A stretch of 64,000 nucleotides of DNA from an uncultured Anaerolineales bacterium (GCA_964437445.1 CAYTGR010000013.1:17786-81785); one strand, 5' to 3'; shown: positions 8,108 through 27,286, counted from the stretch's first letter. A program made the numbers and translations. The notes: generated by a model not told the origin, from the letters alone.

Positions 8108-8191
8108 GGATATTTCCTTTCGTTTTCTAAAAAATAACGCTTTCACTGTAGATAGTATAACTTTCCCGCGGCCTGGAAGCAATTCAAAATG

Positions 8192-8217
8192 TGCTATAAT
8201 CTATTCCAGAATGGAAT
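8192..8217 (+). promoter_or_regulatory. Extended -10 promoter (TGcTATAAT) and 15-bp palindromic LysR box ATTCCAGAATGGAAT (T-N11-A)
   Basis: Perfect inverted repeat TTCCA-GAA-TGGAA about 30 nt upstream of the LysR start, in the divergent region between the LysR gene and the esterase/sugar operon. Confidence 0.5.
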
Positions 8218-8245
8218 AAGTCGGGGCAATGAATGGGGGGCAGAC

Positions 8246-9402: not shown

Positions 9403-11844
9403 ATGGAAGACAAAGAGAAACCCACCATTAACGTAGAACGCCGCCGCCCCGGCAGTAGCACGTCCGCCACGCAGCGCGAACGGGCAGAAGCCCCCTCCCG
9501 CCAGCGCGAACGTCAATCAGTTACAGGGGGGAGTGGTAGTAGCAGTTACCAGGGGGTCCCCTCCATCCCGGGCCTGGAAAATCTGCTTCGCTCGCCCATC
9601 GGCATTGGGGCGATCATTCTGCTGTTCATCTGTGGTCTATCCATTTACTTGCTGTTGGGAGGCACGCTCTCTCTGGAAGATATCAGCCCTCCCGGTTACC
9701 AGGAAGAAACTGCGCCTCCTGGGGTGGTTGAGCAACCCGGGCCAACCCCTACTCGCCGTCCCACCCTGGTGCCGGCCCCGGCCGGGAGCGCCGGGCAAAC
9801 CTGGACTGTCATGTTGTACCAGGATGCAGATGACAAAGTGCTGGAACAGGATATTTTTGTTGACTTGAATGAAGCCGAGCGGGTGGGCTCAGGCCCCAAT
9901 TTGAATATTGTGGCCCAAATTGATCGTTATCAGGCTGGCTTTGCCGGAGATGGCAACTGGGTTGGCGCCCGGCGCTACTTTGTGCGCCAGGATGACGATT
10001 TGAGCGTGGTGGGGTCAGAGCTGGTGCAGGATTTGGGCGAGGTTAACATGGCGAACGGGGACACCCTGGTTGATTTCGCAACCTGGGCCATTGAAAATTA
10101 CCCCGCGGACCATTACGTCCTGATCCTCAGCGACCACGGCATGGGCTGGCCGGGCGGGTGGAGCGATGCCACCGCTACCGGTCACAGCGGGCAGCTGCCG
10201 CTCCAAAGGATGCTGGGAGACAACCTTTACCTGAACGAATTGGACCAGGCTTTGGAAACGATCCGTTCCCAGAGTGGCATAGATCAATTTGAAATGATTG
10301 GCATGGATGCCTGTTTGATGGGCCATATTGAAGTGATGAGTGCCCTGGCTCCCTATGCCAGATACGCAGTGCTCTCGCAGGAAACGGAGCCAGCCCTGGG
10401 TTGGGCCTACGCGGCTTTCCTGGGCGAGCTGCGCGACAATCCGGGGATCACCGGGGCGCAACTGGGACAATTGATCGTAGATAGTTACATTGTGGACGAT
10501 CAGCGCATTGTGGATGATACCGCGCGGGCCGATCTGGTGGGACGCGGGTCCCCGTTGGAGTCTCTGTTCGGCGTGTCCGGTCTGCCCTCTGCTGCGCAGG
10601 TTGCGCGCCAGATGAGCCAGAATGTCACCCTGACTGCCGTTGATCTGCAATCTATGCCGGACCTGATGAGCGGTTTGAACGACTTCGCCGTTGCTTTGCA
10701 GGGGATCAACCAGCGCTCGGTGGCCCAGGCCCGGAGCTATGCTCAATCCTTCACCAATATTTTCGGTCAGAATGTGCCACCGGCCTACATTGACCTGGGT
10801 AACTTTGCTGACCTGGTGGCGCAATCCAGCGGCAACCGTGAGGTGGCCCAGGCCGTTGCCCGGCTCCAGGCGGTCTTGCAGCAGACCATCGTTGCCGAGA
10901 AGCACGGCGCGCGCGTGCCCGGGGCGACCGGGGTGTCCATTTACTTTCCCAATTCGCAGCTTTATGCCACGGCGGCGGCCGGGCCAGAATCCTATACCGG
11001 CCTGGCCCAACGCTTTGCTGCCGAGTCGCTGTGGGACGATTTCCTGGCCTACCATTACACCGGTGAAGCGTTTGAGGCGCAGCGGGGAACGGTCGCCGTG
11101 CCCCCGACGGGCGCGCTACGCGCTCCTGCTGCGGGCGGCATCCAGGTTTCGGCCATCAGCGCGTCGGCGACGGAAGTGGCGCCAGGGGGAAAAGTTCACC
11201 TGAGTGTAGCGCTTGAGGGTGAAAATCTCGGCTATGTGAAGCTGTTGGTGGGTTATCTGGATCAAACTGCCAATTCGCTGTATGTAGCCGATAGTGATTA
11301 CCTGGCCAGCCCCAACACCCGCGAAGTCGGCGGGATTTATTATCCTGATTGGGGCGTCAAAGCATTCACCCTGGCGTTTGACTGGGAGCCCCTGGTCTAC
11401 GCCATTGATGATGGAACGACGCGCTATCCCGCCCTGTTTGCGCCCGCAACCTACGGTAGAACGAGCGAAGAGGCCGTTTACACGGTAGAGGGGATTTATA
11501 CCTTTGCCGATTCTGGCGACCAACGCTACGCCCGCCTGTACTTCGTCAACGGTGTGCTGCAACAGGTCTTTGGTTTTACCGGCGAAGACGCTGCCGGCGC
11601 GCCGCGTGAGATCCTCCCCCGGCCCGGCGATACCTTCACGCTGCTGGAGAAATGGATGGATTTGGATGACCAGGGGCAGGTGGTGCAGACCGTTTTGCAG
11701 GCCGGCAACACGCTGACCTTTAGCGACCGGATGTTCACCTGGGATGTCCTGGATGCGGCGGCGGGGCAATATGTCGTGGGCTTTATCATTGAAGACCTGG
11801 ACGGCAATGCCCAGGTAGTCTTCAAGCCCATCAAGGTGCGCTGA
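9403..11844 (+). CDS. Membrane-anchored clostripain-family (C11, clan CD) cysteine peptidase with C-terminal beta-rich domains
   Basis: Charged cytoplasmic N-terminus, one TM helix (IGIGAIILLFICGLSIYLLLGG), Pro-rich linker. His-Gly (ILSDHGMGW) and Cys (IGMDACLMGH) dyad blocks are spaced as in C11 peptidases. Confidence 0.65.
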   Translation: MEDKEKPTINVERRRPGSSTSATQRERAEAPSRQRERQSVTGGSGSSSYQGVPSIPGLENLLRSPIGIGAIILLFICGLSIYLLLGGTLSLEDISPPGYQEETAPPGVVEQPGPTPTRRPTLVPAPAGSAGQTWTVMLYQDADDKVLEQDIFVDLNEAERVGSGPNLNIVAQIDRYQAGFAGDGNWVGARRYFVRQDDDLSVVGSELVQDLGEVNMANGDTLVDFATWAIENYPADHYVLILSDHGMGWPGGWSDATATGHSGQLPLQRMLGDNLYLNELDQALETIRSQSGIDQFEMIGMDACLMGHIEVMSALAPYARYAVLSQETEPALGWAYAAFLGELRDNPGITGAQLGQLIVDSYIVDDQRIVDDTARADLVGRGSPLESLFGVSGLPSAAQVARQMSQNVTLTAVDLQSMPDLMSGLNDFAVALQGINQRSVAQARSYAQSFTNIFGQNVPPAYIDLGNFADLVAQSSGNREVAQAVARLQAVLQQTIVAEKHGARVPGATGVSIYFPNSQLYATAAAGPESYTGLAQRFAAESLWDDFLAYHYTGEAFEAQRGTVAVPPTGALRAPAAGGIQVSAISASATEVAPGGKVHLSVALEGENLGYVKLLVGYLDQTANSLYVADSDYLASPNTREVGGIYYPDWGVKAFTLAFDWEPLVYAIDDGTTRYPALFAPATYGRTSEEAVYTVEGIYTFADSGDQRYARLYFVNGVLQQVFGFTGEDAAGAPREILPRPGDTFTLLEKWMDLDDQGQVVQTVLQAGNTLTFSDRMFTWDVLDAAAGQYVVGFIIEDLDGNAQVVFKPIKVR

Positions 11845-12128
11845 GCGCCAGGTAGTGCTGCTGTGCAGCCACCTCATCCCCCCACCGGCCAATCCTATGG
11901 AGTGGCGCCGTGGGGGGATGTTTGCGAATGGCTGTACCGACCGGCCTGATGCCCAGCACAACGACCCGCTGCGTGGAGGTGCTGGCGGGCGTGCTGTTGG
12001 CGCTGCCCGTTGCCACCACGAGGCCGCCGTTGAGCGCAATTTTGCAGGCAGGGTGTCAGAGAATTTGCCAGGAGGACGCTGAGAGTTTATTGAGGCTCAA
12101 GTTGCATGACCCCCAGCGTTACGTCTGG

Positions 12129-12818
12129 TCACTGCCGCAGTACCAGCGGCAGCAGCACTGTCGCCACAGTGTAGCCTACCCGGACGCCGCGAATCAGCTG
12201 CTGCGGGTCGAAATCATTCAGGGATGCCAGGATGACGTATTCATTCTGGTTGTTGTCAATGACCCAGGCCGGTGATATGACCAGGTTCCGGCTCAAGATC
12301 TCCGTGCTGGAAATGTTGGTGGTGGTGGTCAAAACCGTGACGATTGTAGTGGTATCCAGGGGAATCCGCACAAGGCCGAGCGTAAGGTTGGCTGAGGAGT
12401 TGTCGCGAAAGTAGAAGAGCAGTTCCTGGACCCGCGCCCCCTGGGGTAGTTGCAGCGGTATGGTCATCTCCGCGGGAAGGAGGGCGGTGGTCGTGAGCAG
12501 GGCTCGCCCACTGTAACCAAAGTTGTACACCAATTGATCCCGGCTATCGTAGGTCTGGAAAGCGAGGCCCGAAAAAGTACGGTACGCGAGACCCGGGGTG
12601 ACTGGTAGCGCCGCGGGACTGGCCGCTTCGTGAGGCCCGACCGGGCCGGGGAGGGAAAACGCGGAGGCCGTCGGTTCTTCCAGAACCGGGAGGGCCGGCG
12701 GCGTCACAACCACCTGGGCGCCGGTGCGGGCGGCGGCCGGCAGCCATCCCGGCCCCAGACTGAGGCCGAGGCCAACGGCGATCATGGCCATCAGGATCAC
12801 AAAGCGCGGGCGAGACAT
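12129..12818 (-). CDS. Secreted hypothetical protein ending in the LPLV tail
   Basis: Signal peptide MSRPRFVILMAMIAVGLGLSLG. C-terminus ...TVLLPLVLRQ. No recognised domain. Confidence 0.5.
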   Translation of the reverse strand: MSRPRFVILMAMIAVGLGLSLGPGWLPAAARTGAQVVVTPPALPVLEEPTASAFSLPGPVGPHEAASPAALPVTPGLAYRTFSGLAFQTYDSRDQLVYNFGYSGRALLTTTALLPAEMTIPLQLPQGARVQELLFYFRDNSSANLTLGLVRIPLDTTTIVTVLTTTTNISSTEILSRNLVISPAWVIDNNQNEYVILASLNDFDPQQLIRGVRVGYTVATVLLPLVLRQ

Positions 12819-14778: not shown

Positions 14779-17469
14779 ATGACATTACGCCTGAAGACAC
14801 TGTTGATCATGGGAGTGCTGTTGGTGGGATTGGTCAGTATTCTTTACCTGGCCCTCTCCACTATCCTGGCCGACGGTTTTAAGCGGGTTGAGGAAACCAG
14901 CATCCGTAAGGATGTGGAGCGGGCGCTGAAAACCGTAGCCAACGACTTGGCGAACTTGAGCTCCACGGCGCGGGATTATGCCGAGTGGGATGACACCTAT
15001 GCCTTTGTCCAGGACCGGAATCCTGATTATATTGAGGCCAACCTGGTTGATTCCACTTTCTCCGAACTCAAGATCAACGTGTTCATGTTGTTTGACGACG
15101 CCGGCCAGCTGGTCTTTGCCAAGGGGTTTGATCTGGATGATGCCGTGGTGACGCCGGTCACGGAAGGATTGTTGAGCTATTTTCAGCCTGGCAGCGCTTT
15201 TTTGTATCATCCCGATTTGCAAACCCGCTACAGTGGCATTTTATTGCTCCCTGAAGGGCCGCTGTTAATGGCGGCCTGTCCTATCCTTACCAGCCAGAAT
15301 AAGGGCCCAATCCACGGGACGCTGGTGTTGGGGCGCTATCTGGATGCGTTGAAGGTGCAGCAGCTGGCCGACCTGACTAATTTGACATTGACCATTCGGC
15401 GGCTGGATGATCCCCAGCTGCCCGACGATGTGCGGGCGATTCAGGGGCAGTTCTCTGATCCCGCGACGATTGTAGTTCAAACATTGGGCGACGAAACCAT
15501 CGCCGGCTACAGTCAGATCACAGACGCTTTTGGCAAGCCGGTGTTATTGTTGCGCGTGGTAGTGGCTAGAGATGTCTATCGGCAAGGTCAACTCAGCCTG
15601 ACCTATTTGCTTTTCTCACTCCTGACCCTGGGATTGATGTTCAGTTTGATTACCTTATGGCTGTTAGAGCGGTTGGTGTTAGCGCCGGTGCTAAGATTGA
15701 GCGCTGAGGTTGGATCGGTGACCCGGCAGGAAGACCCGGCTTTGCGGGTGACGGTTCCCGGCAAGGATGAACTGGGCAAGCTGGCAGTTGCGCTCAACGG
15801 CATGTTGGAAGCGTTGGAGGTTTCTCAGAGACGCCTGCAAGAAAGCGAAGTGCGCTACCGGGCCGTGGTGCAGCAATCGGTAGAAGGTATCGTCGTGGCC
15901 GATGCGGCGACCAAACAGATCCTGGAGGCCAATCTGGCTTTTCAGCGCCTGCTGGGGTACAGTGGGGAGGACCTGCGTTGCCTGACCTTATATGAGGTGG
16001 ATACCCTGAATCGGGAGGCCATTGATTGGACGGTTGAGGCGATCATGGAATCCGGGCAGTCTTTGCTGGGGGAGCGCCAGTTTCGTTGCAAGGATGGCTC
16101 GTTAATTGATGTGGAAATAAGTGCCAACGTGTTGTGGTTGAGCGGGCAGCGGGTCGTGAGTATGCTTGTGCGCCATATCGGCGAGCGCAAGCGGGCCCAG
16201 GCGGAGATTCTGCGGCTCAATGCGCGCCTGCAGCGGCGCGCCGAGGAACTGTCGGCGCTTAACCAAGTGGGACGTTCTATGGCCGCCGTTTTAGAGTTGC
16301 CGGATCTCTTGCAGCTGGTCCAGGTAGAAGCCATGAACCTGCTGGCAGCGGACGCTGCAGCCATATTTCTCTATGAACCGGCCACCGCTTTGTTGACGTG
16401 CGTTGCCGCGCACGGGCCGGGCGAGGCGGAGATGGTGGGCCGGCGTATTCCCGACCGGGTGGGGCTGGCCGGTTGGGTGGCCCAGCATCAACAAACAGCT
16501 CTGGTGACGCAGGTAGCAGACGATCCCCGCTTTCAAGAGTTGTTACCCTTCATGGAATGGTATCGCGGCCGCTCGGTTTTATCTGTGCCGCTGCTGTTTA
16601 ATGCGGTGGTCAGTGGGGTGATTGAAGTGGTCAGCCAGGACAGGCAATTGTTTGATGCCCATGACCAGGAGCTCCTGGAAGCGATTGCTGCGGCCGCGGC
16701 AATTGCCGTCAACAACGCCCAGCTGTACACCAATCTCCAGCTGGCGCTGCGCCAGGAGCAGACGATGCGCGCCCAGCTGATTCAGGCTGGCAAACTGAGT
16801 GCGATGGGACGCATGGTGGCCTCGGTCGCCCACGAGTTCAATAACCCGTTGCAGACTATCAAGAATTGCCTTTTCCTGGTGCAACAGGACATTGGTCCGG
16901 CACTGGCAGAGAATGAGTTTATGCACACGGCCACGTCGGAAATCCAGCGGCTTTCCGACCTGGTGACGCAGTTGCGGGCAGTATATCGCACGCCCGCGGT
17001 CGAGCAGCGCCAGCCTTTGGATCTGGTACAGACCCTGGACGTGGTCCATACGTTGATGCTGCCACACCTGGATAAGCACCGGGTCAGCTGGGAGATCTCC
17101 CTGCCCGCCGTTCCGCTCCAGGTAGTGGGCATTGCAGATCAACTGAAGCAGGTCTTTCTGAACATTGCGTTAAATGCGGTGGATGCCATGCAACCGGGTG
17201 GCGGCGTCCTTACCGTTGCTTTTGTGCTCTCAGACGCGGGCGATAGCGCCGGGGTGGTTTTCCGTGATACCGGACCTGGCCTGGCACCGGAAGTGCTCGC
17301 TAACCTGTTTGAGCCGTTTTTTACAACCCGGGAGGGCGGCATGGGCCTGGGTCTGGCGATCAGTTATGACATTGTGCAGAGCCATGGGGGGCGGATAGAG
17401 GTCACCAGTCCGCCGGGGGCGGGAGCGCAATTCACGGTTTGGCTACCCCTGGCCTCCCCGGACGGATGA
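14779..17469 (+). CDS. Sensor histidine kinase with periplasmic CHASE4-like domain, HAMP, PAS, GAF, HisKA and HATPase
   Basis: TM helix, then the CHASE4 signature (ARDYAEWDDTYAFV), second TM, PAS (QSVEGIVVADAATKQILEAN), GAF, H-box SVAHEFNNPLQ, and a G-box HATPase_c. Start at MTLRL (14779). Confidence 0.85.
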   Translation: MTLRLKTLLIMGVLLVGLVSILYLALSTILADGFKRVEETSIRKDVERALKTVANDLANLSSTARDYAEWDDTYAFVQDRNPDYIEANLVDSTFSELKINVFMLFDDAGQLVFAKGFDLDDAVVTPVTEGLLSYFQPGSAFLYHPDLQTRYSGILLLPEGPLLMAACPILTSQNKGPIHGTLVLGRYLDALKVQQLADLTNLTLTIRRLDDPQLPDDVRAIQGQFSDPATIVVQTLGDETIAGYSQITDAFGKPVLLLRVVVARDVYRQGQLSLTYLLFSLLTLGLMFSLITLWLLERLVLAPVLRLSAEVGSVTRQEDPALRVTVPGKDELGKLAVALNGMLEALEVSQRRLQESEVRYRAVVQQSVEGIVVADAATKQILEANLAFQRLLGYSGEDLRCLTLYEVDTLNREAIDWTVEAIMESGQSLLGERQFRCKDGSLIDVEISANVLWLSGQRVVSMLVRHIGERKRAQAEILRLNARLQRRAEELSALNQVGRSMAAVLELPDLLQLVQVEAMNLLAADAAAIFLYEPATALLTCVAAHGPGEAEMVGRRIPDRVGLAGWVAQHQQTALVTQVADDPRFQELLPFMEWYRGRSVLSVPLLFNAVVSGVIEVVSQDRQLFDAHDQELLEAIAAAAAIAVNNAQLYTNLQLALRQEQTMRAQLIQAGKLSAMGRMVASVAHEFNNPLQTIKNCLFLVQQDIGPALAENEFMHTATSEIQRLSDLVTQLRAVYRTPAVEQRQPLDLVQTLDVVHTLMLPHLDKHRVSWEISLPAVPLQVVGIADQLKQVFLNIALNAVDAMQPGGGVLTVAFVLSDAGDSAGVVFRDTGPGLAPEVLANLFEPFFTTREGGMGLGLAISYDIVQSHGGRIEVTSPPGAGAQFTVWLPLASPDG

Positions 17470-17607
17470 CTTCACTGCAAAGAGGCTCGTGCAAAGTCAT
17501 CCAGACATCAAGAAATAGCTGGCTGAAGACGAAAACCTGCGCGGACTTTGCACTTTGGCGTGAGCTCTCAGGCTTTTTGTAAGTGACTCAGGGATGGGGA
17601 GGTAACC

Positions 17608-18420
17608 ATGGCCGGTGAGACGATTCTGATCATTGATGACGAAGTCAATCTGCGCGTGACCCTGGCTGCCATTCTACAGCGGGCGGGTTATACCGTCACA
17701 GCAGTGGGCCACCCAACGCAGGCATTGCAAAGCCTGACGGCCGGTCCGTTTGACCTGGTTTTTCTGGATCTGCAGCTTCCCGACATGGATGGCTTGACAC
17801 TCTTGGGCGAGCTGCGCCGGTTGTACCCGGAAATGCCGGTCCTGATCTTGACGGCCCACGCTACGTTGAAATCGTCTATTGAGGCCGTGCGGTTGGGAGC
17901 CAGGGATTACTTGCTGAAACCGCTGGATCCCCCGCAGATTCTGAGCCGCGTGCAGGAGATGCTGGAAACCCAGCGCCATGCCCAGCGGCGGCGCGAGATT
18001 GTGGCGCAAATCCAGGCGCTGTTGGCCGAACTACAACAACTGGATCAGGCTGACGGGGAACAGACTCCGTCTGATCTGCTGCTGGCCGGCCTGCAGGCGG
18101 CCGTCCCCAGCAGTCGCTTTTTGCAGCGTGGCCCCTTGACGGTGGATCTACATGCGCGCAGTGTGTTGTGGGAGGGCGCGGCGGTAACTTTACCACCGGG
18201 AGCGTTTGATTATCTGGTGACGTTGGTACGCCATGCCCCGGAGCCGGTCACTTATACCGCCTTGGTGATGCAATCGCAGGGATACGAGGTGAGCCGCCAC
18301 GAAGCGCAGGAATTGGCGCGCTGGCGCATCCATCAACTCCGCCAGGCTCTGGAGCGCGATCCGGGCCAACCCCAATATATCCATACCGTCCGGGGGATAG
18401 GGTACCGTTTAGTCATTTGA
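17608..18420 (+). CDS. Response regulator: receiver plus OmpR/PhoB-type winged helix, separated by a long coiled-coil linker
   Basis: DDE..D phospho-acceptor motif (IIDDE..DLVFLDLQLPDMDG). C-terminal Trans_reg_C (...IHTVRGIGYRLVI). Confidence 0.85.
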   Translation: MAGETILIIDDEVNLRVTLAAILQRAGYTVTAVGHPTQALQSLTAGPFDLVFLDLQLPDMDGLTLLGELRRLYPEMPVLILTAHATLKSSIEAVRLGARDYLLKPLDPPQILSRVQEMLETQRHAQRRREIVAQIQALLAELQQLDQADGEQTPSDLLLAGLQAAVPSSRFLQRGPLTVDLHARSVLWEGAAVTLPPGAFDYLVTLVRHAPEPVTYTALVMQSQGYEVSRHEAQELARWRIHQLRQALERDPGQPQYIHTVRGIGYRLVI

Positions 18421-18460
18421 TTGGTTCAAAAGAGCTCCTACCACTTAGCGAGTTCTTAAA

Positions 18461-18490
18461 CCCGGTGGCATAACCCCACCGGGTTTTTCT
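18461..18490 (+). terminator. Rho-independent terminator after the response-regulator gene
   Basis: Perfect 8-bp stem CCCGGTGG/CCACCGGG with loop CATAACC, followed by TTTTTC. Confidence 0.7.
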
Positions 18491-18639
18491 TCCAGACGTT
18501 ACCTCAAATAATAATCATGAGAGCGCGCCAATGAAGTCCTACGATAACCTCACGTTTCCCGCCAGGATCAATGGTATTATTTTAGTAAGAAGAAAGCGAA
18601 TGGCAGTCAGAGCTTCAGAGGTCAACTTTAGGAGGGGCC

Positions 18640-19800
18640 ATGGATATCAAAGGGGAACGCGGGCAAGCATTGTTTGTAGTATTGTTTGCCATGGTGGCCT
18701 TACTGGTCATTGTGGGCCTGGCGATTGATGGTGGGCAGTTATACAAGGCGCGGCGTGACGTTCAGACCGCGGCCGACGCCGCGGCCCTGGCCGGGACTCG
18801 CGAACTGTCCCAGGCTATCGTCACCTGTAGTGCCGGCGGCAGCGCCCAGGATCGCCTGGTCCGGGATGCGATTGTAGAGTATGCCGCGCTCAACGGCGTC
18901 ATTCACGACAATGTGAATGGCCGCATTTGGGCCTGGTACGTCGACAAAAATCAGGCTCGCTTGAGCAGCGTGGGGTTGGGAAGCGTGCCTAACGGGGCCA
19001 CCGGCGTGGAGGTTTCCATGGTTGTGACCCATCCGACGGCCTTCCTCCGGGTCGTGGGGCAGAATGATATTGTCGCCCCAGGCGAGGCGCTGGCGATGGC
19101 CGGGCGACTCACCCAGATGTCCGGGAATCTGATGCCGGTCGGCGTCCCGGACGAGGTGATTGGGCAGATCAATCCGAATGATACGCTCTGGATCTTTGAC
19201 GATGGGCGCTATTGCCGGGACAACGCGGGGAGCGAGTGTCTGGATACCGGAGACTCGGCGGCGTACCGTGGCTGGTTCAACTTTAACTACATCTACAACC
19301 TGGAGCACCTGCCTAAGGCGGATCCCCTATACCGGACGATTACCACCAGCCGCAGCAATGCTGATATCAAAAACTGGCTGCAAGGAATCGGGGTGCCGGT
19401 CATCCTCGCCGGCAACGTCGGCGCGACGAACGGTGATTACATCTACGGAGATACGGGTGAGCGCGCCGGCGCGATGGATGAGATTTACGATACCTATGAG
19501 GGAGAGACGATTTACTTCCCGGTCTATGATATGGTTTACTCGGGCGAGTACCTGGCCCAGTATCCCGGCATCTTCCAGGCCCCAGAAGGGGGATGGGCCA
19601 ATACCATCATCGGGAAAAAGAACGCCTTTATGTACCACATCGTCGGGTACGTGGCCGCCATTCCCACGGGGGTGTCTAAGGATAAGTTGCGCACCAGCTT
19701 TCAGACTTCCATTATTGGTGAGGGTCAGATTCAACCGGGTGACGGTCTGGGAACCTGTTCTAGTCGCATGTTGACCTATGCCGTGACCTTGTGGCGGTAG
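18640..19800 (+). CDS. TadG-like (Flp-pilus TadE/G-like N-terminal domain) protein with large C-terminal domain
   Basis: N-terminus GQALFVVLFAMVALLVIVGLAIDGGQLYKARRDVQTAADAAALAG is a pseudopilin-like hydrophobic segment plus Tad N-domain. TAGGAGGGG RBS. Confidence 0.6.
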   Translation: MDIKGERGQALFVVLFAMVALLVIVGLAIDGGQLYKARRDVQTAADAAALAGTRELSQAIVTCSAGGSAQDRLVRDAIVEYAALNGVIHDNVNGRIWAWYVDKNQARLSSVGLGSVPNGATGVEVSMVVTHPTAFLRVVGQNDIVAPGEALAMAGRLTQMSGNLMPVGVPDEVIGQINPNDTLWIFDDGRYCRDNAGSECLDTGDSAAYRGWFNFNYIYNLEHLPKADPLYRTITTSRSNADIKNWLQGIGVPVILAGNVGATNGDYIYGDTGERAGAMDEIYDTYEGETIYFPVYDMVYSGEYLAQYPGIFQAPEGGWANTIIGKKNAFMYHIVGYVAAIPTGVSKDKLRTSFQTSIIGEGQIQPGDGLGTCSSRMLTYAVTLWR

Positions 19801-19866
19801 GCCATTTCATCAAGGTCCTGAAGGGTTCTGATTTCAAAGTTAAGGATCAGCAGCAGGGGGTGGGGG

Positions 19867-21759
19867 ATGATAAAATCTGGCAGACACAACCGGGGGCAGG
19901 CACTGGTAGAATTTGCGTTGATACTGCCTCTTTTGCTGTTGATCATCTTTGGGATTATTGATTTTTCGCGCGCGTTTTTTGTCTACGTCAACCTGACCAA
20001 TGCCGCGCGCGAGGGCACCCGCTATGGACTGGTCAATCCGCGCGATTACACAGGGATTGATACTCACGCGCGCAGTACAGTTGACCTGGTGCCGGCTCCG
20101 TTGGTGACCGTCAATGTCTGGTATGATAAAGGTCCCGGCACGGCCACTTTTAGTAATCCCCAGTATGTGACCGTGGGGGATCGGGTCGTGGTGGAAATTG
20201 CTTACGATTTGGAGCCGGTGACACCGCTTATCCAACCCTTTGCCCCGGTTTTTCCGTTGCATACAGTGAATGCGCGCACCATTCAGACCTTGGGCACAGT
20301 CGTGAGCGACAATCCCAACCCGGCGCCGCCGAACGAGCCGCCTGGGGATGGAGCGACGCCGACCTCCACGCCCGGGGGTGGGCCAACCGCTACCGCCACG
20401 CCGGTTGCCCCGACGGCGACCGCGACGCCACGGCCGCCGACGGCCACGCCTACGCCGGTCCCCCTGCGCATTGTCCGGCCGCTGCTGCCGGGGAGTACCC
20501 AGGTGGGCGGGATTGGGCAGCCGGGGCAGATGGTGACGCTGCGCATTGTGCAAACCGGCTTCCAGCAGAGCGTGTTTGTAAATTCCAACGGACAGTTCTT
20601 GTTCACGGGCATTCCGCCTCTGGTGGCAGGGTACACCGTGATTGTGCAGGGCTATGGTCAACAGGACCTGGTTGTGGTGGAGACCGGAACGGCCACACCG
20701 ACGGCGACCCCGACTCCTCTCCCTTCTCCCACTCCCACCCCAAGCGGGGTGTTTATCGCCGTTACGCCCGGCTGTGCTCCGGTGGGCGCAACCCAAACGT
20801 TCCAGGTGACCGGATCTAACTGGCCGACCGGCAGCGCTCAAAAAAGGATCGCCATCTATTGGGATACGGTGGATAGTTCACCGGAAGCCCGGATCAGTGC
20901 CGCGGTGTCCTTCAATACCTCCATTCAGGTCAATGTGACGGCCGGCACGCATACCATCATAGCCCGGACGGAGGACAACCAGGGTAATTACACGGGAGGT
21001 GCTCAAGTCACTTTCCAGGTAACGGCTCCTTGCCCGGCCACCCCAACGCCAAGGCCCCAGGCGCGCCCCAACCTGATCATCAATGGGATGCTGTTGCGTG
21101 ATACGCCGCCGTTGGGCACCTACCAGAAGCTGCATCTGGAAGTGGGGATCTCTAACCAGGGGGCTCTCGACGCGGCCTCGCTGTTCTGGGTGGATTTGTT
21201 TGCTGATACACCTGCCGACCCCCTGGCTTTCAGCAGCGTGGATTATGTGGCAGTGGATGGCCTCCTGGCTGGCAGCACCCTTTCGTTTACCATGTATGTG
21301 CCCGACGGATTTGCTGCCACGGGGGTGCATACCCTGACGGCTATGGTGGACACCTGGGATCAGATCGCCGAGACCAGTGAACTGGATAACCTCAGCCGGG
21401 TTTACACGGTTACGATTGCGAGCGCTAACCCGACGCCCACGCCCACGCCGACGCCGGAGGTGACGCCGGGAGCCGGTGGCGCGATTGAGGGCACCACGTA
21501 CATGTACACCGACGGGTTGCGGCCGCAGAGCGGGGTCAGTGTCTACGTTTACGACGCGCAGGGTCGCCTTTATGGTTCTACCCGTTCGGATAACAACGGC
21601 GCGTATCATATCGGCGATTTGCCGCCCAACTCCACCGGCTATACCGTGCGCGCCGTCTTGCGGATTGGTGACCAGTTGTACGTGGATCAGGCCGTAGCGC
21701 CGGTCTATGCCGGGATGACTACCACCGGGGTTGACTTCACTTTTGTTCCTGCTAATTGA
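19867..21759 (+). CDS. TadE-like N-terminal domain fused to Pro/Thr linkers, Ig-like, CARDB-like and carboxypeptidase-regulatory-like domains (adhesin-like)
   Basis: N-terminus GQALVEFALILPLLLLIIFGIIDFSRAFFVYVNLTNAAREGTRYG is a TadE motif. Two PT-rich linkers. C-terminus SGVSVYVYDAQGRLYGSTRSDNNGAYHIGDL is a CarbopepD_reg-like beta-sandwich. Confidence 0.65.
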   Translation: MIKSGRHNRGQALVEFALILPLLLLIIFGIIDFSRAFFVYVNLTNAAREGTRYGLVNPRDYTGIDTHARSTVDLVPAPLVTVNVWYDKGPGTATFSNPQYVTVGDRVVVEIAYDLEPVTPLIQPFAPVFPLHTVNARTIQTLGTVVSDNPNPAPPNEPPGDGATPTSTPGGGPTATATPVAPTATATPRPPTATPTPVPLRIVRPLLPGSTQVGGIGQPGQMVTLRIVQTGFQQSVFVNSNGQFLFTGIPPLVAGYTVIVQGYGQQDLVVVETGTATPTATPTPLPSPTPTPSGVFIAVTPGCAPVGATQTFQVTGSNWPTGSAQKRIAIYWDTVDSSPEARISAAVSFNTSIQVNVTAGTHTIIARTEDNQGNYTGGAQVTFQVTAPCPATPTPRPQARPNLIINGMLLRDTPPLGTYQKLHLEVGISNQGALDAASLFWVDLFADTPADPLAFSSVDYVAVDGLLAGSTLSFTMYVPDGFAATGVHTLTAMVDTWDQIAETSELDNLSRVYTVTIASANPTPTPTPTPEVTPGAGGAIEGTTYMYTDGLRPQSGVSVYVYDAQGRLYGSTRSDNNGAYHIGDLPPNSTGYTVRAVLRIGDQLYVDQAVAPVYAGMTTTGVDFTFVPAN

Positions 21760-21774
21760 TCTGTAGAGGATGAG

Positions 21775-23034
21775 ATGCGACCACGTTATTGGGGTCTGGT
21801 TATCGGAATGGTGTTAGCTTTGGTGCCGGTCATCGTTGGGGCGGCGGCCTTAGCCGAATGGGTGGGGGCCGATCCGGCGTTCCAGCTGGTTGCCAACGGC
21901 GATGGACAACATGCCGACCTGGCGATCAGAACCGGGCAGACGGCAGTAGTCTGGGCCGGCCGCAGTACGCCGGGCATTTACCTGGGCACTGCGGGCGGGA
22001 GCAGCTGGACGACAACCACTCTGACGACGGCTGCCGAGGTCCATCATCCGGTCGTTGTTTATTCGGGTACCCGCTGGATTGCTGTGTGGGCGCAGGGCAT
22101 TCTTTCAGATGTGACGATTATGAGCCAGGATCAGGACGGCCTGGCGCAAGCTGTGGTTACGCATATGTTCGGTGAGGCCTTCCCGCAGCTCAAAAGTGGC
22201 CCTACCGGACAATATCTAACCTTTGCTGCCAGCACTTCTTACGCCGAACGCACGTTGACCGATCTCTATCTCAGCCACCGACCGCTGACGGCTACGGCCT
22301 GGGCTACCGCCATTGTAGTGACTCGTACGCAGGTGATCCCCGGTCAGACCGGCGGGGGCGTATGGAACCCCCGCCTGGCACTCAGCCCGGATGGACTGAC
22401 TCTGCACCTGGTCTGGCAGCAGACAGTGGGCATCACCCGCACGGTCTGGTATCTCTCCGGTACCTGGACTCCAGGCGGTGTCATGTGGGGATCGCCGCAA
22501 CAGGTCTCGCCACCCGATCAGAGTGTAGCGGTGTTGCCGGATGTGGCCGCGACGGCGGACCAGGTGTATGTCACCTGGACTGAAGTGGCGGGGGGGGTGG
22601 CCTATTCCAATACCCAGTATATCAACCTGTGGCAGCTGGGAAAGCCGGCTGTCCGGGTCTCCCCTGATTTCTATGTCAACAACGTCCAACCTACCTGGGC
22701 AGCCTCAACGCTGGATGCGCAGGGGCAGCAGGTCTGCTTCACCTGGCACGCTAATGCCCCTGGCCTTCCCTCCGGGGAGGGAAAAGAGGAAGTCTGGCTG
22801 CGGTGTTCCAAAGATGGCGGAGCGACCTGGATGGAGATGGTAAATGTCTCCGAGAGCCCGGCCACTTATTCTTTGAATCCCAGAGTGGAGCTGGACGCCA
22901 GCGGGCGGGTAGCGCTGGTCTGGACCGAAGTGGCCATGGATCAGGAACAGCGGAAATTTTATGATGTTTATTACCGCAGCGGCCCGGCACAAATGTTGCA
23001 TGTCTACTTGCCCCTGGTATTGCGGAGATCTTGA
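21775..23034 (+). CDS. Secreted BNR-repeat (sialidase-like beta-propeller) protein ending in the LPLV tail
   Basis: N-terminal signal/anchor. One canonical BNR motif SKDGGATW plus degenerate copies. C-terminus ...HVYLPLVLRRS. Confidence 0.5.
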   Translation: MRPRYWGLVIGMVLALVPVIVGAAALAEWVGADPAFQLVANGDGQHADLAIRTGQTAVVWAGRSTPGIYLGTAGGSSWTTTTLTTAAEVHHPVVVYSGTRWIAVWAQGILSDVTIMSQDQDGLAQAVVTHMFGEAFPQLKSGPTGQYLTFAASTSYAERTLTDLYLSHRPLTATAWATAIVVTRTQVIPGQTGGGVWNPRLALSPDGLTLHLVWQQTVGITRTVWYLSGTWTPGGVMWGSPQQVSPPDQSVAVLPDVAATADQVYVTWTEVAGGVAYSNTQYINLWQLGKPAVRVSPDFYVNNVQPTWAASTLDAQGQQVCFTWHANAPGLPSGEGKEEVWLRCSKDGGATWMEMVNVSESPATYSLNPRVELDASGRVALVWTEVAMDQEQRKFYDVYYRSGPAQMLHVYLPLVLRRS

Positions 23035-23642
23035 CCATGCGCGCTATAAAGGGGTTGGCTTTATTGCTGGGGGGGCTGGTGGTCCTGCTGGTTCTGCTGG
23101 TCGCAGGCTGGCAGGGCCGGCGCTGGTTGACCACGGCGTTCCCGGAGCCTACCCTGGCCTGGAGCGGGCTAAGCGCTCCCGTGGCGTTGTCGGATGCCGC
23201 CGGGCGTAGCGCGGAGCGGGCGACGGCCTGGGCCGCGGATGCTGTTCTGGTGGAGGTAGAGGGGGCCTGGCGTCCGGCCCCGGACTGGATCCAGGTGGAG
23301 ACGCCGCCGCTGGCCTGGACGTTTTATTACTACTCTGCCATCCAGCGGTCAGTCGCGGCGGTGACGGTACAGGGAGATTCTCTGCTCTGGTCTCCCCCTC
23401 TGGAAGTCACAGTCGCGCCGGAGGTGTTGTCCACCTTCCCGCCCGTGTACGGCGCTAACGTGGCCTGGCTCTCTCTGCGGGCCGCCGGTGGCGATCAACT
23501 GTTGCAGGAAGATGGCGAAACTACCGTGCGGCTGACGTTGCATCAGGTTGAGGGCACACCCCTCTGGGAAGCTGTAGCATTTCGGGAGGGACAATTTTTG
23601 CAGGTACGATTAGATGCTCAGACCGGCCAGGTTGTCCCCTAA
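23031..23642 (+). CDS. Membrane-anchored hypothetical protein (type II topology), translationally coupled (ATGA) to the BNR gene
   Basis: N-terminal TM LALLLGGLVVLLVLLVAGW. Remainder extracytoplasmic with no known motif. Confidence 0.45.
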   Translation: MTMRAIKGLALLLGGLVVLLVLLVAGWQGRRWLTTAFPEPTLAWSGLSAPVALSDAAGRSAERATAWAADAVLVEVEGAWRPAPDWIQVETPPLAWTFYYYSAIQRSVAAVTVQGDSLLWSPPLEVTVAPEVLSTFPPVYGANVAWLSLRAAGGDQLLQEDGETTVRLTLHQVEGTPLWEAVAFREGQFLQVRLDAQTGQVVP

Positions 23643-23745
23643 GGGCGGCGCGTAGTTACGCCAATCCTGAGCTATGCTCAGGCCAGGCCTTGCTGACACG
23701 GCCAGCGGGTGGCCTCAAGGCCGTTCAGAGCTGACTTTTTAGGAG

Positions 23746-23795
23746 GTTCTTCGCGGGCGGGCCTTGTCTGCCGGCGAAGAACTTCTGTTTTTATC
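23746..23795 (+). terminator. Rho-independent terminator closing the TadG/TadE/BNR operon
   Basis: 9-bp stem GTTCTTCGC/GCGAAGAAC with a 19-nt GC-rich loop, followed by TTCTGTTTTTAT. Confidence 0.65.
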
Positions 23796-23879
23796 CCTCG
23801 TGCTTCTACCACCGGTCGCTTCGCTGAAAGCGCAGTAGTTGAAACCACCAACCCGGGTGGTTACATCCCGGGTTAATGA

Positions 23880-23997
23880 TGAGGACACAGCAACGAATTC
23901 TCATGGTTATCTCATGTTATTAACGTAAGAAAATGGTATTATTTAGGTAAGATATAACCTACCGGAAATTTGAAGCTTAGCAATCAGGAGGCGTGAA
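23880..23997 (+). promoter_or_regulatory. AT-rich promoter region upstream of the small TadE-like gene
   Basis: Local AT island (for example ..ATGGTATTATTTAGGTAAGATATAACC..) in a 65% GC background. AGGAGG RBS before the ATG at 23998. Confidence 0.35.
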
Positions 23998-24417
23998 ATG
24001 TTTAAAATTGCCCAGCGCCGTGAACAGGGACAGAGTCTGGTGGAATTTGCACTTTTGTTGCCGTTGTTGCTGATTTTGTTGTTGGGAGTGCTTGACCTGG
24101 GGCGTGTTTTTTACGTTTTGGTAGCCTTGAAAGACGCTGCCGACGAAGGAGCTACCTACGCTGCCATCCGACCATCGGATACCCAGGGAATTCAATTGCG
24201 AACTGCGGATGCTTCTGGCTCATTAGTGACCATTGATCCGGCCCAGGTGACGGTGGTGCGGCCGGCGACGGTAGTCCCCGGTGCTCCGATCACGGTGACG
24301 GTTGAGCACTCTTTTGAATTCTTCAACCCCTTCATTGCCCCGGTGCTTACCAGCGCTGCGAACAACAGTATGGTCCTGCATACCAATTCCACTCATCCCA
24401 TTATTTCAGTGCGGTGA
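23998..24417 (+). CDS. TadE-like protein (minor pseudopilin-like), stand-alone
   Basis: N-terminus GQSLVEFALLLPLLLILLLGVLDLGRVFYVLVALKDAADEGATYA is a TadE family signature. 139 aa. Confidence 0.7.
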   Translation: MFKIAQRREQGQSLVEFALLLPLLLILLLGVLDLGRVFYVLVALKDAADEGATYAAIRPSDTQGIQLRTADASGSLVTIDPAQVTVVRPATVVPGAPITVTVEHSFEFFNPFIAPVLTSAANNSMVLHTNSTHPIISVR

Positions 24418-24541: not shown

Positions 24542-24573
24542 CTGCCGCCGGGGGTAAATTATCCCCCGGCGGC
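24542..24573 (+). terminator. Strong hairpin (12/13-bp stem CTGCCGCCGGGGG..CCCCCGGCGGCA), probable terminator or attenuator with a weak U tract
   Basis: Inverted repeat read directly. Followed by ATGTTGCTGGTTGG. Confidence 0.4.
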
Positions 24574-24743
24574 AATGTTGCTGGTTGGCGGGCGATCCCG
24601 GCGCTGGCGCCGGTCCGGTGGCGGGTGCAACCGCCTGGACCCGATGGCGTGGCTCAAGAAAAACCGCCCCCAGCACGTAATGGCTCCGTTATCGCCTCCA
24701 CGGGGAGTTTATCTTACGCAAAACATACCTGTATCCACATTTG

Positions 24744-24752: not shown

Positions 24753-24823
24753 GTGCCCCTGTTTTGCTGTTGCCGGCGCTCTCAACCGTATGATTTTTGC
24801 AGACTCTGTTCAGGAGGCTTAAC

Positions 24824-27286
24824 ATGCACTTGCACCGTTCCCGCATCGTGTGCGCCCTGGTGGGGCTGGCGCTCCTCGGCGCGTTCTGGCTGTCCGGCGT
24901 CCGGCCGGGCTCCGGGCCGGTCCAGATCGCTCGCGCTCAGACCACCGGCGTCACGCCCACCGGCCTCCAGGACTATGAGCGCTGGGTGGGCTCGCTGCAT
25001 TCCCACGTCGGCATGGACGGTGACGATGGCGCGAATGGCTCCACCGCCGCGCAGGCCTTCGCCTACGCCCGCAACCTGCCCCATCTCCAGTATTTCGCCG
25101 TCAGCCCCCACCTGCACGCTTCCCGCAGCGGCGACGCCACCCTCTGGTATGAAAACACCTACGATACCCTCCGGGCGCAGGCGGCCGGCGCTACTACCGC
25201 CGACTTTGTGGCCGTGGCCGGGGTGGAGGTCGGTACAATCTCCAAAGGCGGCCACTGGAATCTCTTCAATGCCCAGGACCTGGTGGGACAGGATCATCCC
25301 GACGGTGACTGGAACGACGCCGATGACTACTACGATCATCTTGCCGGGCTGGGGGCTGCCAGGGAGCTGGTCGCGGCGCAATTCAACCATCCCAACACCA
25401 CTGACTTTGGCAACCGCTACGACGCCAATGCCGCGCCCTACGTTGGCACGCTCGCCGTCTCCAGCGGGCCGGCCTTCTCTGCTGCTACCGATTTCGGCGA
25501 CAGTGGCAGCAATTACGAATCGGTCTGGGCGCATTTCCTGAGTCTGGGCTGGAAACTGGCCCCGGCGGCCGATCAGGACAATCACAACGCCACATGGGGC
25601 GCCTCGTCCAGTGAGTACACCGTCATCGTGCGGCCCAAAGGGACGGCGTTGACGCCGGCCAACGTCGTGCAGGGGCTGCGGGAGCACATGACCTACGCCA
25701 CCGAGGATGCCAACCTGCAATTAGGCTTCATCGCCAACGGTTGGAGCATGGGGCAGACGATCGGCGGCAGCCCAAACGTGGCCTTCGTCGTCTGGTGGAA
25801 CAATCCCTCGGCTACGATTTACAATCTCAACAACAATACGGCCCGCGCTGAGGCCGCCAGTGACGCCATTCAGAATATCTGGCTCTACAAAAACGGCTTT
25901 AGCACGCCGGTAGCGAGCTACCAGCCGCGGACGGTAAGCGGGGCGTGGGCAGTTACCGTCACCGCCACGGCGGGGGACTGGTTCGTGGTCAAATTCCAGG
26001 ACAGCAGTACATTAGCGACCACTGGCCGGACAACCGACCTGGCCTGGTCGGCCCCGGTCTGGTACGATCCGGCGCACGCCGACGTACCGCTGACCGTCAA
26101 CGGGGCTGCCCCCGTGCCGGTGGCCGGGGTCGCCCTGAGCGGGCCGCTCAGCGGGACCGTGGGGGCGACTTCAGCCTTTACCGCCACAGTTACGCCGTTC
26201 TCGGCAACGTTGCCCATCACTTACGTCTGGGAGGCAGTTGGACAGGCTCCGCTCACCCACACCGGCGGCTTGAGCGATACGGCAATGTTGGCCTGGGGTA
26301 TGCCGGGGACCTACCCGGTGACGGTCACCGCGCGCAACGCGGCCGCCAGCGTCCAGGCCAGCCAGATTATGGTGGTCGTAGCACCTCCGGCCTCCACCGC
26401 CGTCGCTGTTGAGGGTGTCGCTCTGAGCGGGCCGCTCAGCGGGACCGTGGGGGCGACTTCAGCCTTTACCGCCACAGTTACGCCGTTCTCGGCAACGTTG
26501 CCCATCACTTACGTCTGGGAGGCAGTTGGACAGGCTCCGCTCACCCACACCGGCGGCTTGAGCGATACGGCAATGTTGGCCTGGGGTATGCCGGGGACCT
26601 ACCCGGTGACGGTCACCGCGCGCAACGCGGCCGCCAGCGTCCAGGCCAGCCAGATTATGGTGGTCGTAGCACCTCCGGCCTCCACCGCCGTCGCTGTTGA
26701 GGGTGTTGCCCTGAGCGGGCCGCTCAGCGGGACCGTGGGAAGCATGGCGACCTTCACGGCCACGGTCACGCCGCTTTCAGCGACGTTGCCTATCACCTAT
26801 GTCTGGGCGGTGACCGGGCAGCCGCCAATCACCTGCACCAACGAGGGGTTGACCAGCACCGTCACGTTCCCCTGGCTGCTGGCCAGGACCCAGGAGGTCA
26901 CCGTGACCGCGGTCAATATCCAGGGGAGCGCTACCGCGACACAACCGGTTTCAGTGACGGAGCCGGTGGCCGGGGTGGCCGTAGCCGGGATGTGGCTCAG
27001 CGGTCCCGGCCAGGTGCTGGTCGGAACCGGGGCCACGTTCACTGCCACGGTCACGCCGCCCGACGCAACCGTGCCGCTCACGTACACCTGGCAGGCCACC
27101 GGGCAACTGCCGGTCACGCACACGCACGCGCAACTGAGTGACACCGTCGCCTGGACGTGGGACACCCCTGGTATCCAGACGTTCACCGTGACCGTCCAGA
27201 ATATCGGCGGGCCGGTGGTCCAGGTCGCCGCCGTGACCGTGACCGCGCACACGCTCTATGTGCCGCTGGTCCTGGCGCAGTGGTAG
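24824..27286 (+). CDS. Secreted PHP-domain (CehA/McbA-like metallo-phosphoesterase) protein with four PKD/Ig-like repeats and the LPLV tail
   Basis: Signal peptide. PHP motifs LHSHVGMDGDDG and PHLHAS. Four ~96-aa repeats (..SGPLSGTVGATSAFTATVTP..PITYVW..). C-terminus ...HTLYVPLVLAQW. Start at 24824 (AGGAGG RBS). Confidence 0.65.
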   Translation: MHLHRSRIVCALVGLALLGAFWLSGVRPGSGPVQIARAQTTGVTPTGLQDYERWVGSLHSHVGMDGDDGANGSTAAQAFAYARNLPHLQYFAVSPHLHASRSGDATLWYENTYDTLRAQAAGATTADFVAVAGVEVGTISKGGHWNLFNAQDLVGQDHPDGDWNDADDYYDHLAGLGAARELVAAQFNHPNTTDFGNRYDANAAPYVGTLAVSSGPAFSAATDFGDSGSNYESVWAHFLSLGWKLAPAADQDNHNATWGASSSEYTVIVRPKGTALTPANVVQGLREHMTYATEDANLQLGFIANGWSMGQTIGGSPNVAFVVWWNNPSATIYNLNNNTARAEAASDAIQNIWLYKNGFSTPVASYQPRTVSGAWAVTVTATAGDWFVVKFQDSSTLATTGRTTDLAWSAPVWYDPAHADVPLTVNGAAPVPVAGVALSGPLSGTVGATSAFTATVTPFSATLPITYVWEAVGQAPLTHTGGLSDTAMLAWGMPGTYPVTVTARNAAASVQASQIMVVVAPPASTAVAVEGVALSGPLSGTVGATSAFTATVTPFSATLPITYVWEAVGQAPLTHTGGLSDTAMLAWGMPGTYPVTVTARNAAASVQASQIMVVVAPPASTAVAVEGVALSGPLSGTVGSMATFTATVTPLSATLPITYVWAVTGQPPITCTNEGLTSTVTFPWLLARTQEVTVTAVNIQGSATATQPVSVTEPVAGVAVAGMWLSGPGQVLVGTGATFTATVTPPDATVPLTYTWQATGQLPVTHTHAQLSDTVAWTWDTPGIQTFTVTVQNIGGPVVQVAAVTVTAHTLYVPLVLAQW
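26129..26704 (+). repeat. Two perfect 288-bp tandem copies encoding PKD-like repeats 1 and 2, with more diverged copies downstream
   Basis: The 288-nt block from 26129 is repeated base-for-base from 26417. A third copy from about 26705 and a fourth near 27000 are diverged. In frame (96 aa). Confidence 0.85.

Follow-up and report, generated by a model that had tools for sequence, protein, structure and literature searches.

A cassette of TadE- and TadG-like genes beside a CHASE4 two-component system, a probable detached tip module of Tad pili in Anaerolineae-lineage Chloroflexota

The minor pilins of Tad pili form tip complexes, and Myxococcus possesses four clusters of genes for them, only one of which lies within a kil gene cluster (PMC12075869). 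Here we describe a 64 kb stretch of DNA from an uncultured Anaerolineales bacterium (GCA_964437445.1, CAYTGR010000013.1:17786-81785), hereafter the window, from whose first letter all coordinates are counted unless a locus is named. At positions 14779-24417, a sensor kinase gene and a response-regulator gene are followed by a cassette of five genes encoding a TadG-like protein, a long and a short TadE-like protein (TadE-long and TadE-short), a beta-propeller protein and a PepSY-like membrane protein. Open reading frames (ORFs) were called and their proteins were scanned with Pfam, and all genes were found where the initial annotation had placed them. We think that this cluster is probably a minor-pilin (tip) module of a Tad/type IVc pilus belonging to Anaerolineae-lineage Chloroflexota, detached from the Tad core and under separate regulation. 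The closest described counterparts are the Kil Tip clusters kilL, kilM and kilN of Myxococcus xanthus, TadE/F/G-like trios that lie mostly apart from the Tad core and whose minor pilins carry extra modular domains and are predicted to make up an exchangeable tip (PMC12075869). Kil minor pilins are processed by a dedicated prepilin peptidase (PMC12075869), a likeness that is here one of motif. In contrast with Kil, the large modular subunit of our locus is of the TadE type, with four beta-sandwich domains and PT linkers, and not only of the TadG type. In addition, the propeller and PepSY proteins are fixed members, a sensor and a regulator are attached, one cassette is present in the window, and the host, a filamentous Chloroflexota, differs in its envelope.

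Other known systems resemble the locus in part. Caulobacter crescentus (CpaJ/CpaK/CpaL) and Aggregatibacter (TadE/TadF/TadG) use two small TadE-type proteins and one large TadG-type protein carrying a G/A-X4-E/F cleavage motif (PMC12607857, PMC12918778). The premise of the initial annotation that TadE, TadF and TadG are all short was inexact: a large size is the rule for TadG/CpaL, and minor pilins of modular build have been described (PMC12075869, PMC12607857). Compared with these two systems, one of the "small" pilins is here 630 aa long, the TadG-like protein has neither a detected vWA/MIDAS nor Glu/Phe at +5, and the genes lie outside the tad locus in the window's lineage. The extreme C-terminal strand of Caulobacter CpaL is needed for assembly (PMC12918778), and the TadG-like protein has a conserved C-terminus that looks strand-like by sequence (..TYAVTLWR; ..VTLWR and ..VIKMTQ across orthologues). 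Streptococcus sanguinis PilB/PilC and Vibrio cholerae TcpB also join a pilin to C-terminal adhesive or cargo domains at the tip (PMC12075869). These are type IVa or type IVb pilins whose appended domains are lectin, vWA or beta-rich, and not the Big_6/unknown/CARDB/CarboxypepD_reg string found here. The same difference applies to CofB of enterotoxigenic Escherichia coli, another modular type IV pilin. Type IVa systems with PilY1/PilC offer a further likeness, as a gene for a signal-peptide-bearing beta-propeller with a conserved C-terminal peptide lies in their minor-pilin operon (PMC12918778). Contrarily to PilY1, our propeller is sialidase/BNR-like, has no detectable sequence relation to PilC/PilY1 and no match to their Pfam model, and its tail is also found on unrelated secreted proteins; we would regard the similarity as a functional analogy only. 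Within the Anaerolineales, a conserved and expressed flp-cpaB-cpaE-cpaF-tadB-tadC cluster has been described, drawn without tadE/F/G (PMC4877987), Tad-type pili were observed on other Chloroflexota (10.1101/2025.08.19.671072), and such pili were reported for others as well (PMC7332563). Neither the five-gene cassette nor its regulators appear in these three descriptions. The Anaerolineales cluster is the likely partner machine, as the same genes flank the cassette in three of the relatives described below.

The relatives were collected by scanning one genome per species, which gave 79 fetched loci (76 distinct; designated L001 and so on). In L042, L045 and L046, the cassette is located between flp upstream and rcpC-tadZ-tadA-tadB-tadC downstream. 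In L045, the cassette, which includes the propeller and PepSY homologues, is followed by genes for RcpC/CpaB, a TadZ-like protein combining REC and ParA, a T2SSE ATPase (E 2e-65) and two T2SSF proteins, and the same Tad core set was recovered by BLAST in L042 and L046. Directly 5' of the TadE-long gene, these three loci and also L063, L071 and L075 carry one or two flp genes. Their products read EEG/QGLVEYALILVLV and ..EEG/QGLVEYALILVLVAIVV.., with ~40 mature residues. Shorter TadE/TadE/TadG sets were present within the Tad loci L064, L071 and L074. In the window, TadE-long carries the prepilin motif RG/QALVEF and TadE-short QG/QSLVEF, each with Glu at +5 followed by a hydrophobic helix. This is the outcome of looking for a TadV-type cleavage site in the N-termini, as the initial annotation had proposed: a Flp-type G/QxLVE(F/Y) motif occurs in both TadE proteins. 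The motif is kept in ~115 of the 120 TadE-long homologues listed; the TadE-long family reads ..RG/QGLVEFALILP.. and the TadE-short family, whose orthologues also conserve Glu at +5, reads ..G/QSLVEFAL.., as in the neighbouring Flp pilins. Since the same cassette is found inside full Tad loci and shares its motif with them, these results indicate that it belongs to the Tad system, and they are the reason why we read the cluster as a detached tip module. They also support the suggestion of pseudopilin-mediated surface display made in the initial annotation. CpaF was encoded within 10 kb in only eight of the 79 fetched loci, so that most cassettes are detached from Tad genes over that distance, and in the window's lineage the cassette became separated from the Tad motor.

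Several of these loci hold further genes. A protein made of a Kelch propeller and DUF11 is encoded between TadG and RcpC in L064 (13096-15495), a 970-aa DUF11-repeat protein with the C-terminal tail described below lies directly 5' of TadE-long in L044 (6635-9547), and a LysM/TPR protein (6542-8338) and an Amidase_2 protein (9734-10975) are located beside CpaF in L074. In Litorilinea, "grappling hook" appendages are reportedly formed by a DUF11 protein (10.1101/2025.08.19.671072).

The cassette is conserved well beyond the loci with Tad genes. We found more than 200 TadE-long homologues with the same architecture, the named ones coming from Anaerolineae or from Chloroflexota metagenome-assembled genomes. 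All but one of the 76 distinct loci were labelled Chloroflexota, mostly Anaerolineae but also Thermoflexales, Ardenticatenales and Promineifilaceae, and the best locus among the one-per-species representatives reached 53% identity only. Mapping of ORFs with BLAST and hidden Markov models revealed the order TadE-long, propeller, PepSY, TadE-short and one to three TadG-like genes in ~55 of the 76 loci; the propeller and PepSY genes were found together in 55 of 76. These ~55 cassette loci are nearly all labelled as Anaerolineae-lineage Chloroflexota. The initial annotation had rightly seen that a propeller and a membrane protein are part of the operon, while their obligatory membership of the cassette and the conserved tail had escaped it. 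In the window, the TadG-like gene comes first, which is a circular permutation of the common order and is also the arrangement of L080, a 95%-identical Logan contig. This permuted order, with TadE-short last and under its own promoter, was seen in the window and L080, unlike all other loci. It would be accounted for by a duplication in tandem and the subsequent loss of the outer copies, with which the duplicated promoter element described below agrees. In L011, L009, L014 and L027, a pair of extracytoplasmic function (ECF) sigma and anti-sigma genes lies upstream and a GAF-HisKA_3 kinase with a GerE regulator downstream, and two or three tandem TadG paralogues are present. This arrangement suggests layered regulation and TadG diversification.

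We then consider the three pilin-like proteins in turn. TadE-long (19867-21759, + strand, 630 aa) is a modular minor pilin in which Pfam recognized the TadE N-domain (PF07811, E 5.5e-18), a weak Big_6, CARDB and CarboxypepD_reg, with PT linkers. Its AlphaFold2 (AF2) model has a mean predicted local distance difference test (pLDDT) score of 87.2 and resembles a pilin lollipop over its first ~150 residues, with a 48-residue helix (9-56) and strands at 81-87, 106-115 and 129-138, a block in which pLDDT exceeds 90. A PT linker (156-190) modelled as disordered leads to beta-sandwich domains at 200-272, 290-390, 400-520 (CARDB) and 536-630 (CarboxypepD_reg-like). In the second of these, the family alignment shows an invariant Cys303 and a nearly invariant Cys389. 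A Foldseek search with the complete model found nothing more specific than strings of Ig/MG domains and adhesins of the MSCRAMM type, at template-modelling (TM) scores of ~0.1, which are low because the linkers are flexible and say little beyond "beads on a string". TadE-short (23998-24417, +, 139 aa) is a short minor pilin by its Pfam TadE match (E 6e-15), with a weak NCBIfam match to the minor pilin TadE_Rv3655c. The TadG-like protein (18640-19800, +, 386 aa) matched Pfam by its Tad N-domain alone (PF13400, E 2.5e-12). In NCBIfam, none of the cassette proteins matched a specific family, and the C-terminal tail matched no model.

In the mechanism that we favour, TadE-long and TadE-short would enter the membrane and, as their motif suggests, a TadV-type prepilin peptidase would cut after the Gly of G/QxLVEF. 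Both would then form a priming complex with the TadG-like protein, onto which a Tad motor encoded elsewhere (TadZ, TadA/CpaF, TadB, TadC and RcpC) would polymerise Flp, so that the complex would end at the distal tip and cap the fibre. The four beta-sandwich domains of TadE-long, borne on PT linkers, would project from the tip as its adhesive or recognition element. The propeller and PepSY proteins would be obligatory accessories. For the propeller, we prefer the role of a tip- or fibre-associated, glycan-binding or glycan-cleaving protein comparable to PilY1, which is the least certain step.

The propeller gene (21775-23034, +) encodes 419 aa, and its assignment as sialidase-like comes from the AF2 model, Foldseek and the Pfam matches of orthologues. 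The AF2 model (pLDDT 81.7, predicted TM score 0.82), built on a shallow alignment of 10 sequences, since word-indexed homologue searches had given five and eight proteins, shows a helix at 4-22 and then an all-beta propeller. An exhaustive profile search found 237 cluster representatives at E <=1e-30. The window protein itself had no significant Pfam match, whereas 19 of 53 orthologues matched BNR_4 or BNR_2; the name "BNR propeller" given in the initial annotation is upheld by the fold and by the orthologues, and not by the window protein's own Pfam result. One clear Asp-box is present (SKDGGATW), and a sequence-profile search of the PDB gave only weak matches at the Asp-box level. The N-termini of the orthologues resemble cleavable signal peptides (..A-x-A), and the protein is predicted to be secreted or anchored. 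The next gene (23037-23642, +), whose ATG start was taken from the gene call in L080, encodes a bitopic protein of ~201 aa with an N-terminal transmembrane helix. It had been annotated simply as a membrane protein, to which we can add a putative extracytoplasmic PepSY-like domain: the window protein itself had no Pfam match, but 18 of 30 orthologues matched PepSY (PF03413, best E 3.4e-6), and the family gave a weak PDB profile match to a PepSY propeptide (E 0.03).

For the propeller only, another role has to be weighed, namely that of an envelope-glycan remodeller that opens the thick Chloroflexota envelope for the pilus, with PepSY as its membrane partner or inhibitor and without association to the tip. 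The best Foldseek matches are indeed hydrolases and lyases: GH145 (5mum and 5mvh, TM-score 0.63-0.64, E ~1e-8), GH33 sialidases and a PL42 lyase, with GH43 also listed. In the family, Glu338 is invariant, and His147, Arg169, His265 and Tyr285 are nearly so. PepSY domains occur in protease propeptides and inhibitors (Pfam description), cell-wall enzymes (LysM/TPR and Amidase_2) are encoded in the Tad locus of L074, and the envelopes of Chloroflexota are multilayered (10.1101/2025.08.19.671072). On the other hand, the window protein reaches no Pfam sialidase model, the positional protein in L064 is a Kelch propeller with DUF11, and loci of the Ardenticatenales type encode in the propeller's place a protein whose body is different and undetectable by BLAST and whose tail is similar. 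Such divergence at one position argues for a binding module rather than for one conserved catalytic activity, and we consider remodelling a possible role, although a somewhat unlikely one.

The tail in question is the C-terminus of the propeller, ..VYLPLVLRRS in the window and (V/I)(F/Y)LP(L/I)V(L/M)(R/K) plus zero to three residues in the family (FLPLVxR-type). It is present in 45 of the 56 orthologues from the loci and in 65 of 81 full-length library representatives, several others ending in similar tails that do not match. In ~334,000 residues of related loci, the motif was terminal 58 times and internal four times. The AF2 monomer model leaves residues 408-419 disordered, beyond the propeller itself. 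In loci of the Ardenticatenales and Promineifilaceae types, where BLAST detects no propeller, the same-position protein ends in ..VLFLPIIR.., ..VLFLPTMRAD or ..SFLPAIFSK. Besides the propeller, the tail is found on three other signal-peptide-like proteins of the window: a PKD-repeat protein (24797-27286, ..LYVPLVLAQW), a 229-aa ORF (12129-12818, - strand, ..VLLPLVLRQ) and a 743-aa ORF ~9 kb beyond the cluster (33571-35802, ..QVFLPLVQRH). Large tail-bearing proteins adjoin the cassette in the window (the PKD protein), L044, L066 and L070, but tail-bearing genes were not significantly nearer to cassettes (five of 607 flank genes, permutation p 0.25). Because of this result and of the fourth tail protein at ~9 kb, we do not claim the tail as Tad-specific. 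A search of the literature library for the tail heptapeptides found no paper, and we see the tail primarily as a candidate signal, apparently undescribed, for C-terminal sorting or docking throughout the lineage of Anaerolineae-type Chloroflexota.

A narrower idea starts from PilC/PilY1, a beta-propeller tip adhesin whose last ~10 residues lock into the minor pilin PilK (PMC12918778). By analogy, the propeller could be a convergent PilY1 analogue for Tad pili whose invariant C-terminal peptide docks into the minor-pilin tip, which we consider unlikely. The other carriers of the peptide, namely the PKD-repeat protein, DUF11 proteins and two window proteins of no assigned family, might then be interchangeable passengers of the fibre, or the peptide might mark an undescribed sorting signal on them, and we expect this with no more confidence.

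The trio of pilin-like proteins could also be a short pseudopilus, that is, a piston or tip like that of type II secretion systems (T2SS) that exports or presents the propeller and perhaps other tail proteins. The propeller is always encoded between pilin genes and combines a signal-peptide-like N-terminus with a conserved C-terminal peptide that AF2 models as disordered, large tail-bearing proteins adjoin the cassette in the four loci named above, and minor pilins load secreted proteins in T2SS and in the TcpB/TcpF pair, according to work cited in PMC12075869. Against this, tail genes do not cluster with cassettes, one tail gene of the window is ~9 kb away, and bona fide flp genes accompany the cassette in the complete loci. 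We know of no precedent for Tad-dependent protein secretion of such a kind, and a secretion device seems quite improbable to us. Least probable of all is a display free of any pilus, in which the TadE and TadG N-termini would be signal anchors for a membrane-tethered adhesin and a surface enzyme with no fibre: the window without a Tad core, the many detached cassettes and the PT linkers and Ig-like domains typical of cell-wall-spanning stalks would agree with it, but a plain anchor has no need of the precise Flp-type cleavage motif, with its Glu at +5, that the whole family keeps, the three pilin-like genes are always together as in minor-pilin sets (PMC12075869), and the synteny with Tad loci, with the cassette set between flp and the motor genes, disfavours the generic anchors unrelated to pili that the initial annotation had kept as an alternative.

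We also looked at the regulation of the cassette. The kinase gene (14779-17469, +) encodes 896 aa with a transmembrane helix, an extracytoplasmic CHASE4 domain (Pfam E 3.9e-40), a second transmembrane helix, HAMP, PAS, GAF, HisKA and HATPase_c, and its start agrees with the gene call in L080. After a gap of 138 nt, the adjacent gene (17608-18420, +) encodes an OmpR-type response regulator of 270 aa with a Response_reg receiver and a winged-helix Trans_reg_C domain (Pfam), whose best partial NCBIfam matches were RpaB, OmpR and MtrA. A CHASE4 sensor, a HisKA/HATPase core and a DNA-binding receiver are all present. Two intrinsic terminators separate the units. T1 (18458-18486, +), 3' of the regulator gene, is an 11-bp stem followed by UUUUUCUU (-18.6 kcal/mol, z -3.49), and T2 (23742-23786, +), 3' of the PepSY gene and before the stand-alone tadE-short, is stronger (-34.1 kcal/mol, z -6.88). 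Both had been reported in the initial annotation, and direct folding recovered a hairpin and a U-run at each. A scan with consensus models gave promoter and terminator sites no more numerous than in shuffled sequence; it caught just a 5-bp piece of T1 and missed T2, so that direct folding was needed.

Two candidate regulator-dependent promoters were found downstream of these terminators. The first (18538-18580, +), before the tadG operon, consists of the repeats CCTACGATAAC/CTCACGTTTCC at 18538-18559, a 15-nt gap and TATTAT. The second (23900-23942, +), before tadE-short, has the repeats CTCATGGTTAT/CTCATGTTATT at 23900-23921 and again a 15-nt gap and TATTAT. In both, the repeats are 11-bp direct repeats, and a leader of ~50 nt and a Shine-Dalgarno sequence follow. 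The two share a 21-nt motif, for which 0 were expected by chance, and the element CTCAYGTT-N-TGGTA occurs at these two sites only in the window. Among the fetched loci, the composite element was detected in L003 alone, the closest representative, upstream of TadE-long, where the geometry of repeats, 15 nt and TATTAT also precedes the gene; the operator motif was otherwise common only to L003 and L080. In the alignment of the regulator-to-cassette intergenic regions of L001, L019 and L056, a sigma-70-like TTTACA..TAGAAT was seen and not the repeats of the window. Promoters activated by PhoB/OmpR classically show such a geometry, with direct repeats of 11-bp period that overlap the -35 position. 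Upstream of tadE-short in L080, the proximal ~130 nt are nearly identical to the window, while the distal part, including T2, is diverged or absent, a footprint in keeping with the proposed promoter. When window 23643-23790 is compared with L080 10283-10400, a segment of ~120 nt with T2 is absent from L080, indicating a strain-specific insertion or deletion, and the gap between the PepSY gene and tadE-short measures 355 nt in the window against 236 nt in L080.

Nearly every cassette adjoins a dedicated regulator, the type of which varies by lineage, with at least four types. The pair of a CHASE4 HisKA kinase and an OmpR-type regulator is found in the window, L080, L001, L003, L019 and L056, and in L065 a CHASE4 HisKA kinase is encoded just 3' of TadG, where the contig ends. 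A CHASE4 HisKA_3 kinase with a GerE-type regulator is present in L069 and L016, and the kinase only in L044. About 30 loci have an ECF sigma factor with a DUF5667 anti-sigma, and L040, L042, L045, L046 and others have a HisKA_3 kinase with a GerE (NarL-type) regulator but without CHASE4. That CHASE4 recurs with two classes of transmitter and output suggests that the signal sensed is tied to the function of the cassette. Control by the CHASE4/OmpR pair, as suggested in the initial annotation, is plausible given the synteny in six genomes and the promoter element common to both units, although this pair is one of at least four regulator types. The kinase would sense an extracytoplasmic cue, and the regulator, by binding repeats that overlap the -35 position, would activate two promoters, one driving tadG, tadE-long, propeller and PepSY and the other tadE-short. 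The two-component system PprA/PprB, located beside the tad genes of Pseudomonas aeruginosa, switches on Flp/Tad pili; here the sensor, with its CHASE4 domain, and the regulator class differ, and only the tip module is linked to a regulator.

Several observations weigh against a Tad tip module under the control of this regulator. A Pfam scan of the window's plausible ORFs (150 aa or longer) detected no T2SSE, T2SSF, RcpC or A24 peptidase; the scanned ORFs otherwise encode transporters, hydrolases, regulators and similar proteins, and the rest lie across scanned genes in another frame or on the opposite strand. A six-frame scan of the whole window with the pattern G-X4-E-[YF/L/V/I] plus a hydrophobic run gave a prepilin-type motif at an N-terminus in the two TadE genes only, the third match (47234) lying 91 residues into an unrelated 303-aa frame, and we conclude that no flp gene is present in the window. 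Both scans agree with the initial annotation, in which no CpaF/TadA ATPase, TadBC or Flp pilin was seen, and under our reading the Tad core would be encoded elsewhere in the genome. Among the scanned ORFs of the Tad-linked relatives' loci, no prepilin peptidase was identified. The N-terminus of the TadG-like protein, RG/QALFVV, belongs to a family reading G/QA followed by hydrophobic residues, with no Glu/Phe at +5; no Pfam domain and no vWA/MIDAS were detected past residue 52, and the family profile (46-member alignment) gave no sequence match in the PDB. The ~330 aa beyond its N-segment would then be a fold without recognized relative, and its pilin nature is suggested by the N-domain and synteny. 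The vWA domain is common among TadG/CpaL-type proteins but not universal. The occurrence of the tail on four proteins of the window, and not on the propeller only, weakens a Tad-specific role for it. Neither of the proposed promoters was picked up by a simple sigma-70 scan, binding of the regulator to the repeats is deduced from their geometry only, and the tip assembly and the propeller-pilin contact are hypothetical.

Scattered Tad minor-pilin clusters, modular pilins and two-component control of Tad genes are already known. Apparently undescribed are the fixed set of five genes, a TadE-type pilin of 630 aa, a propeller that is obligatory and bears the terminal tail, the PepSY partner and the swapping of regulators from lineage to lineage around a constant cassette. 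Anaerolineae are abundant formers of filaments and flocs in digesters, activated sludge and sediments. Their adhesiveness was proposed to stem from Tad pili (PMC4877987), and the cassette offers a tangible candidate for the end of such a pilus that adheres and sets its specificity, with a defined sensor, regulator and candidate operator. If this holds true, the exchangeable minor-pilin tips of Tad pili extend to a monoderm-like phylum, and two accessory proteins unseen in described Tad loci are added to them, one of which echoes the propeller and terminal strand of PilY1.

Finally, some features of the neighbourhood deserve mention. A strong hairpin (24543-24574, -31.8 kcal/mol) closes the cluster after tadE-short; it has a T-run on the minus strand alone, yet no minus-strand gene ends there. 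On the 5' side, a large, putatively extracytoplasmic Peptidase_C11 protein of the clostripain family (9403-11844, 813 aa) is encoded without the C-terminal tail, and an ORF at 11116-12039 (-) was discarded as a spurious frame overlapping this gene. On the 3' side, a Cthe_2159 carbohydrate-binding-domain protein (29780-31699, -, 639 aa), also without the tail, has an N-terminus resembling a lipoprotein signal (..LTFTAC..). Within the gene of the PKD protein, a 288-bp tandem repeat (26129-26807, 2.4 copies, 94% matches) encodes near-identical PKD repeats; the protein has 829 aa in the window and 724 aa in L080, indicating that the number of repeats varies between close strains.

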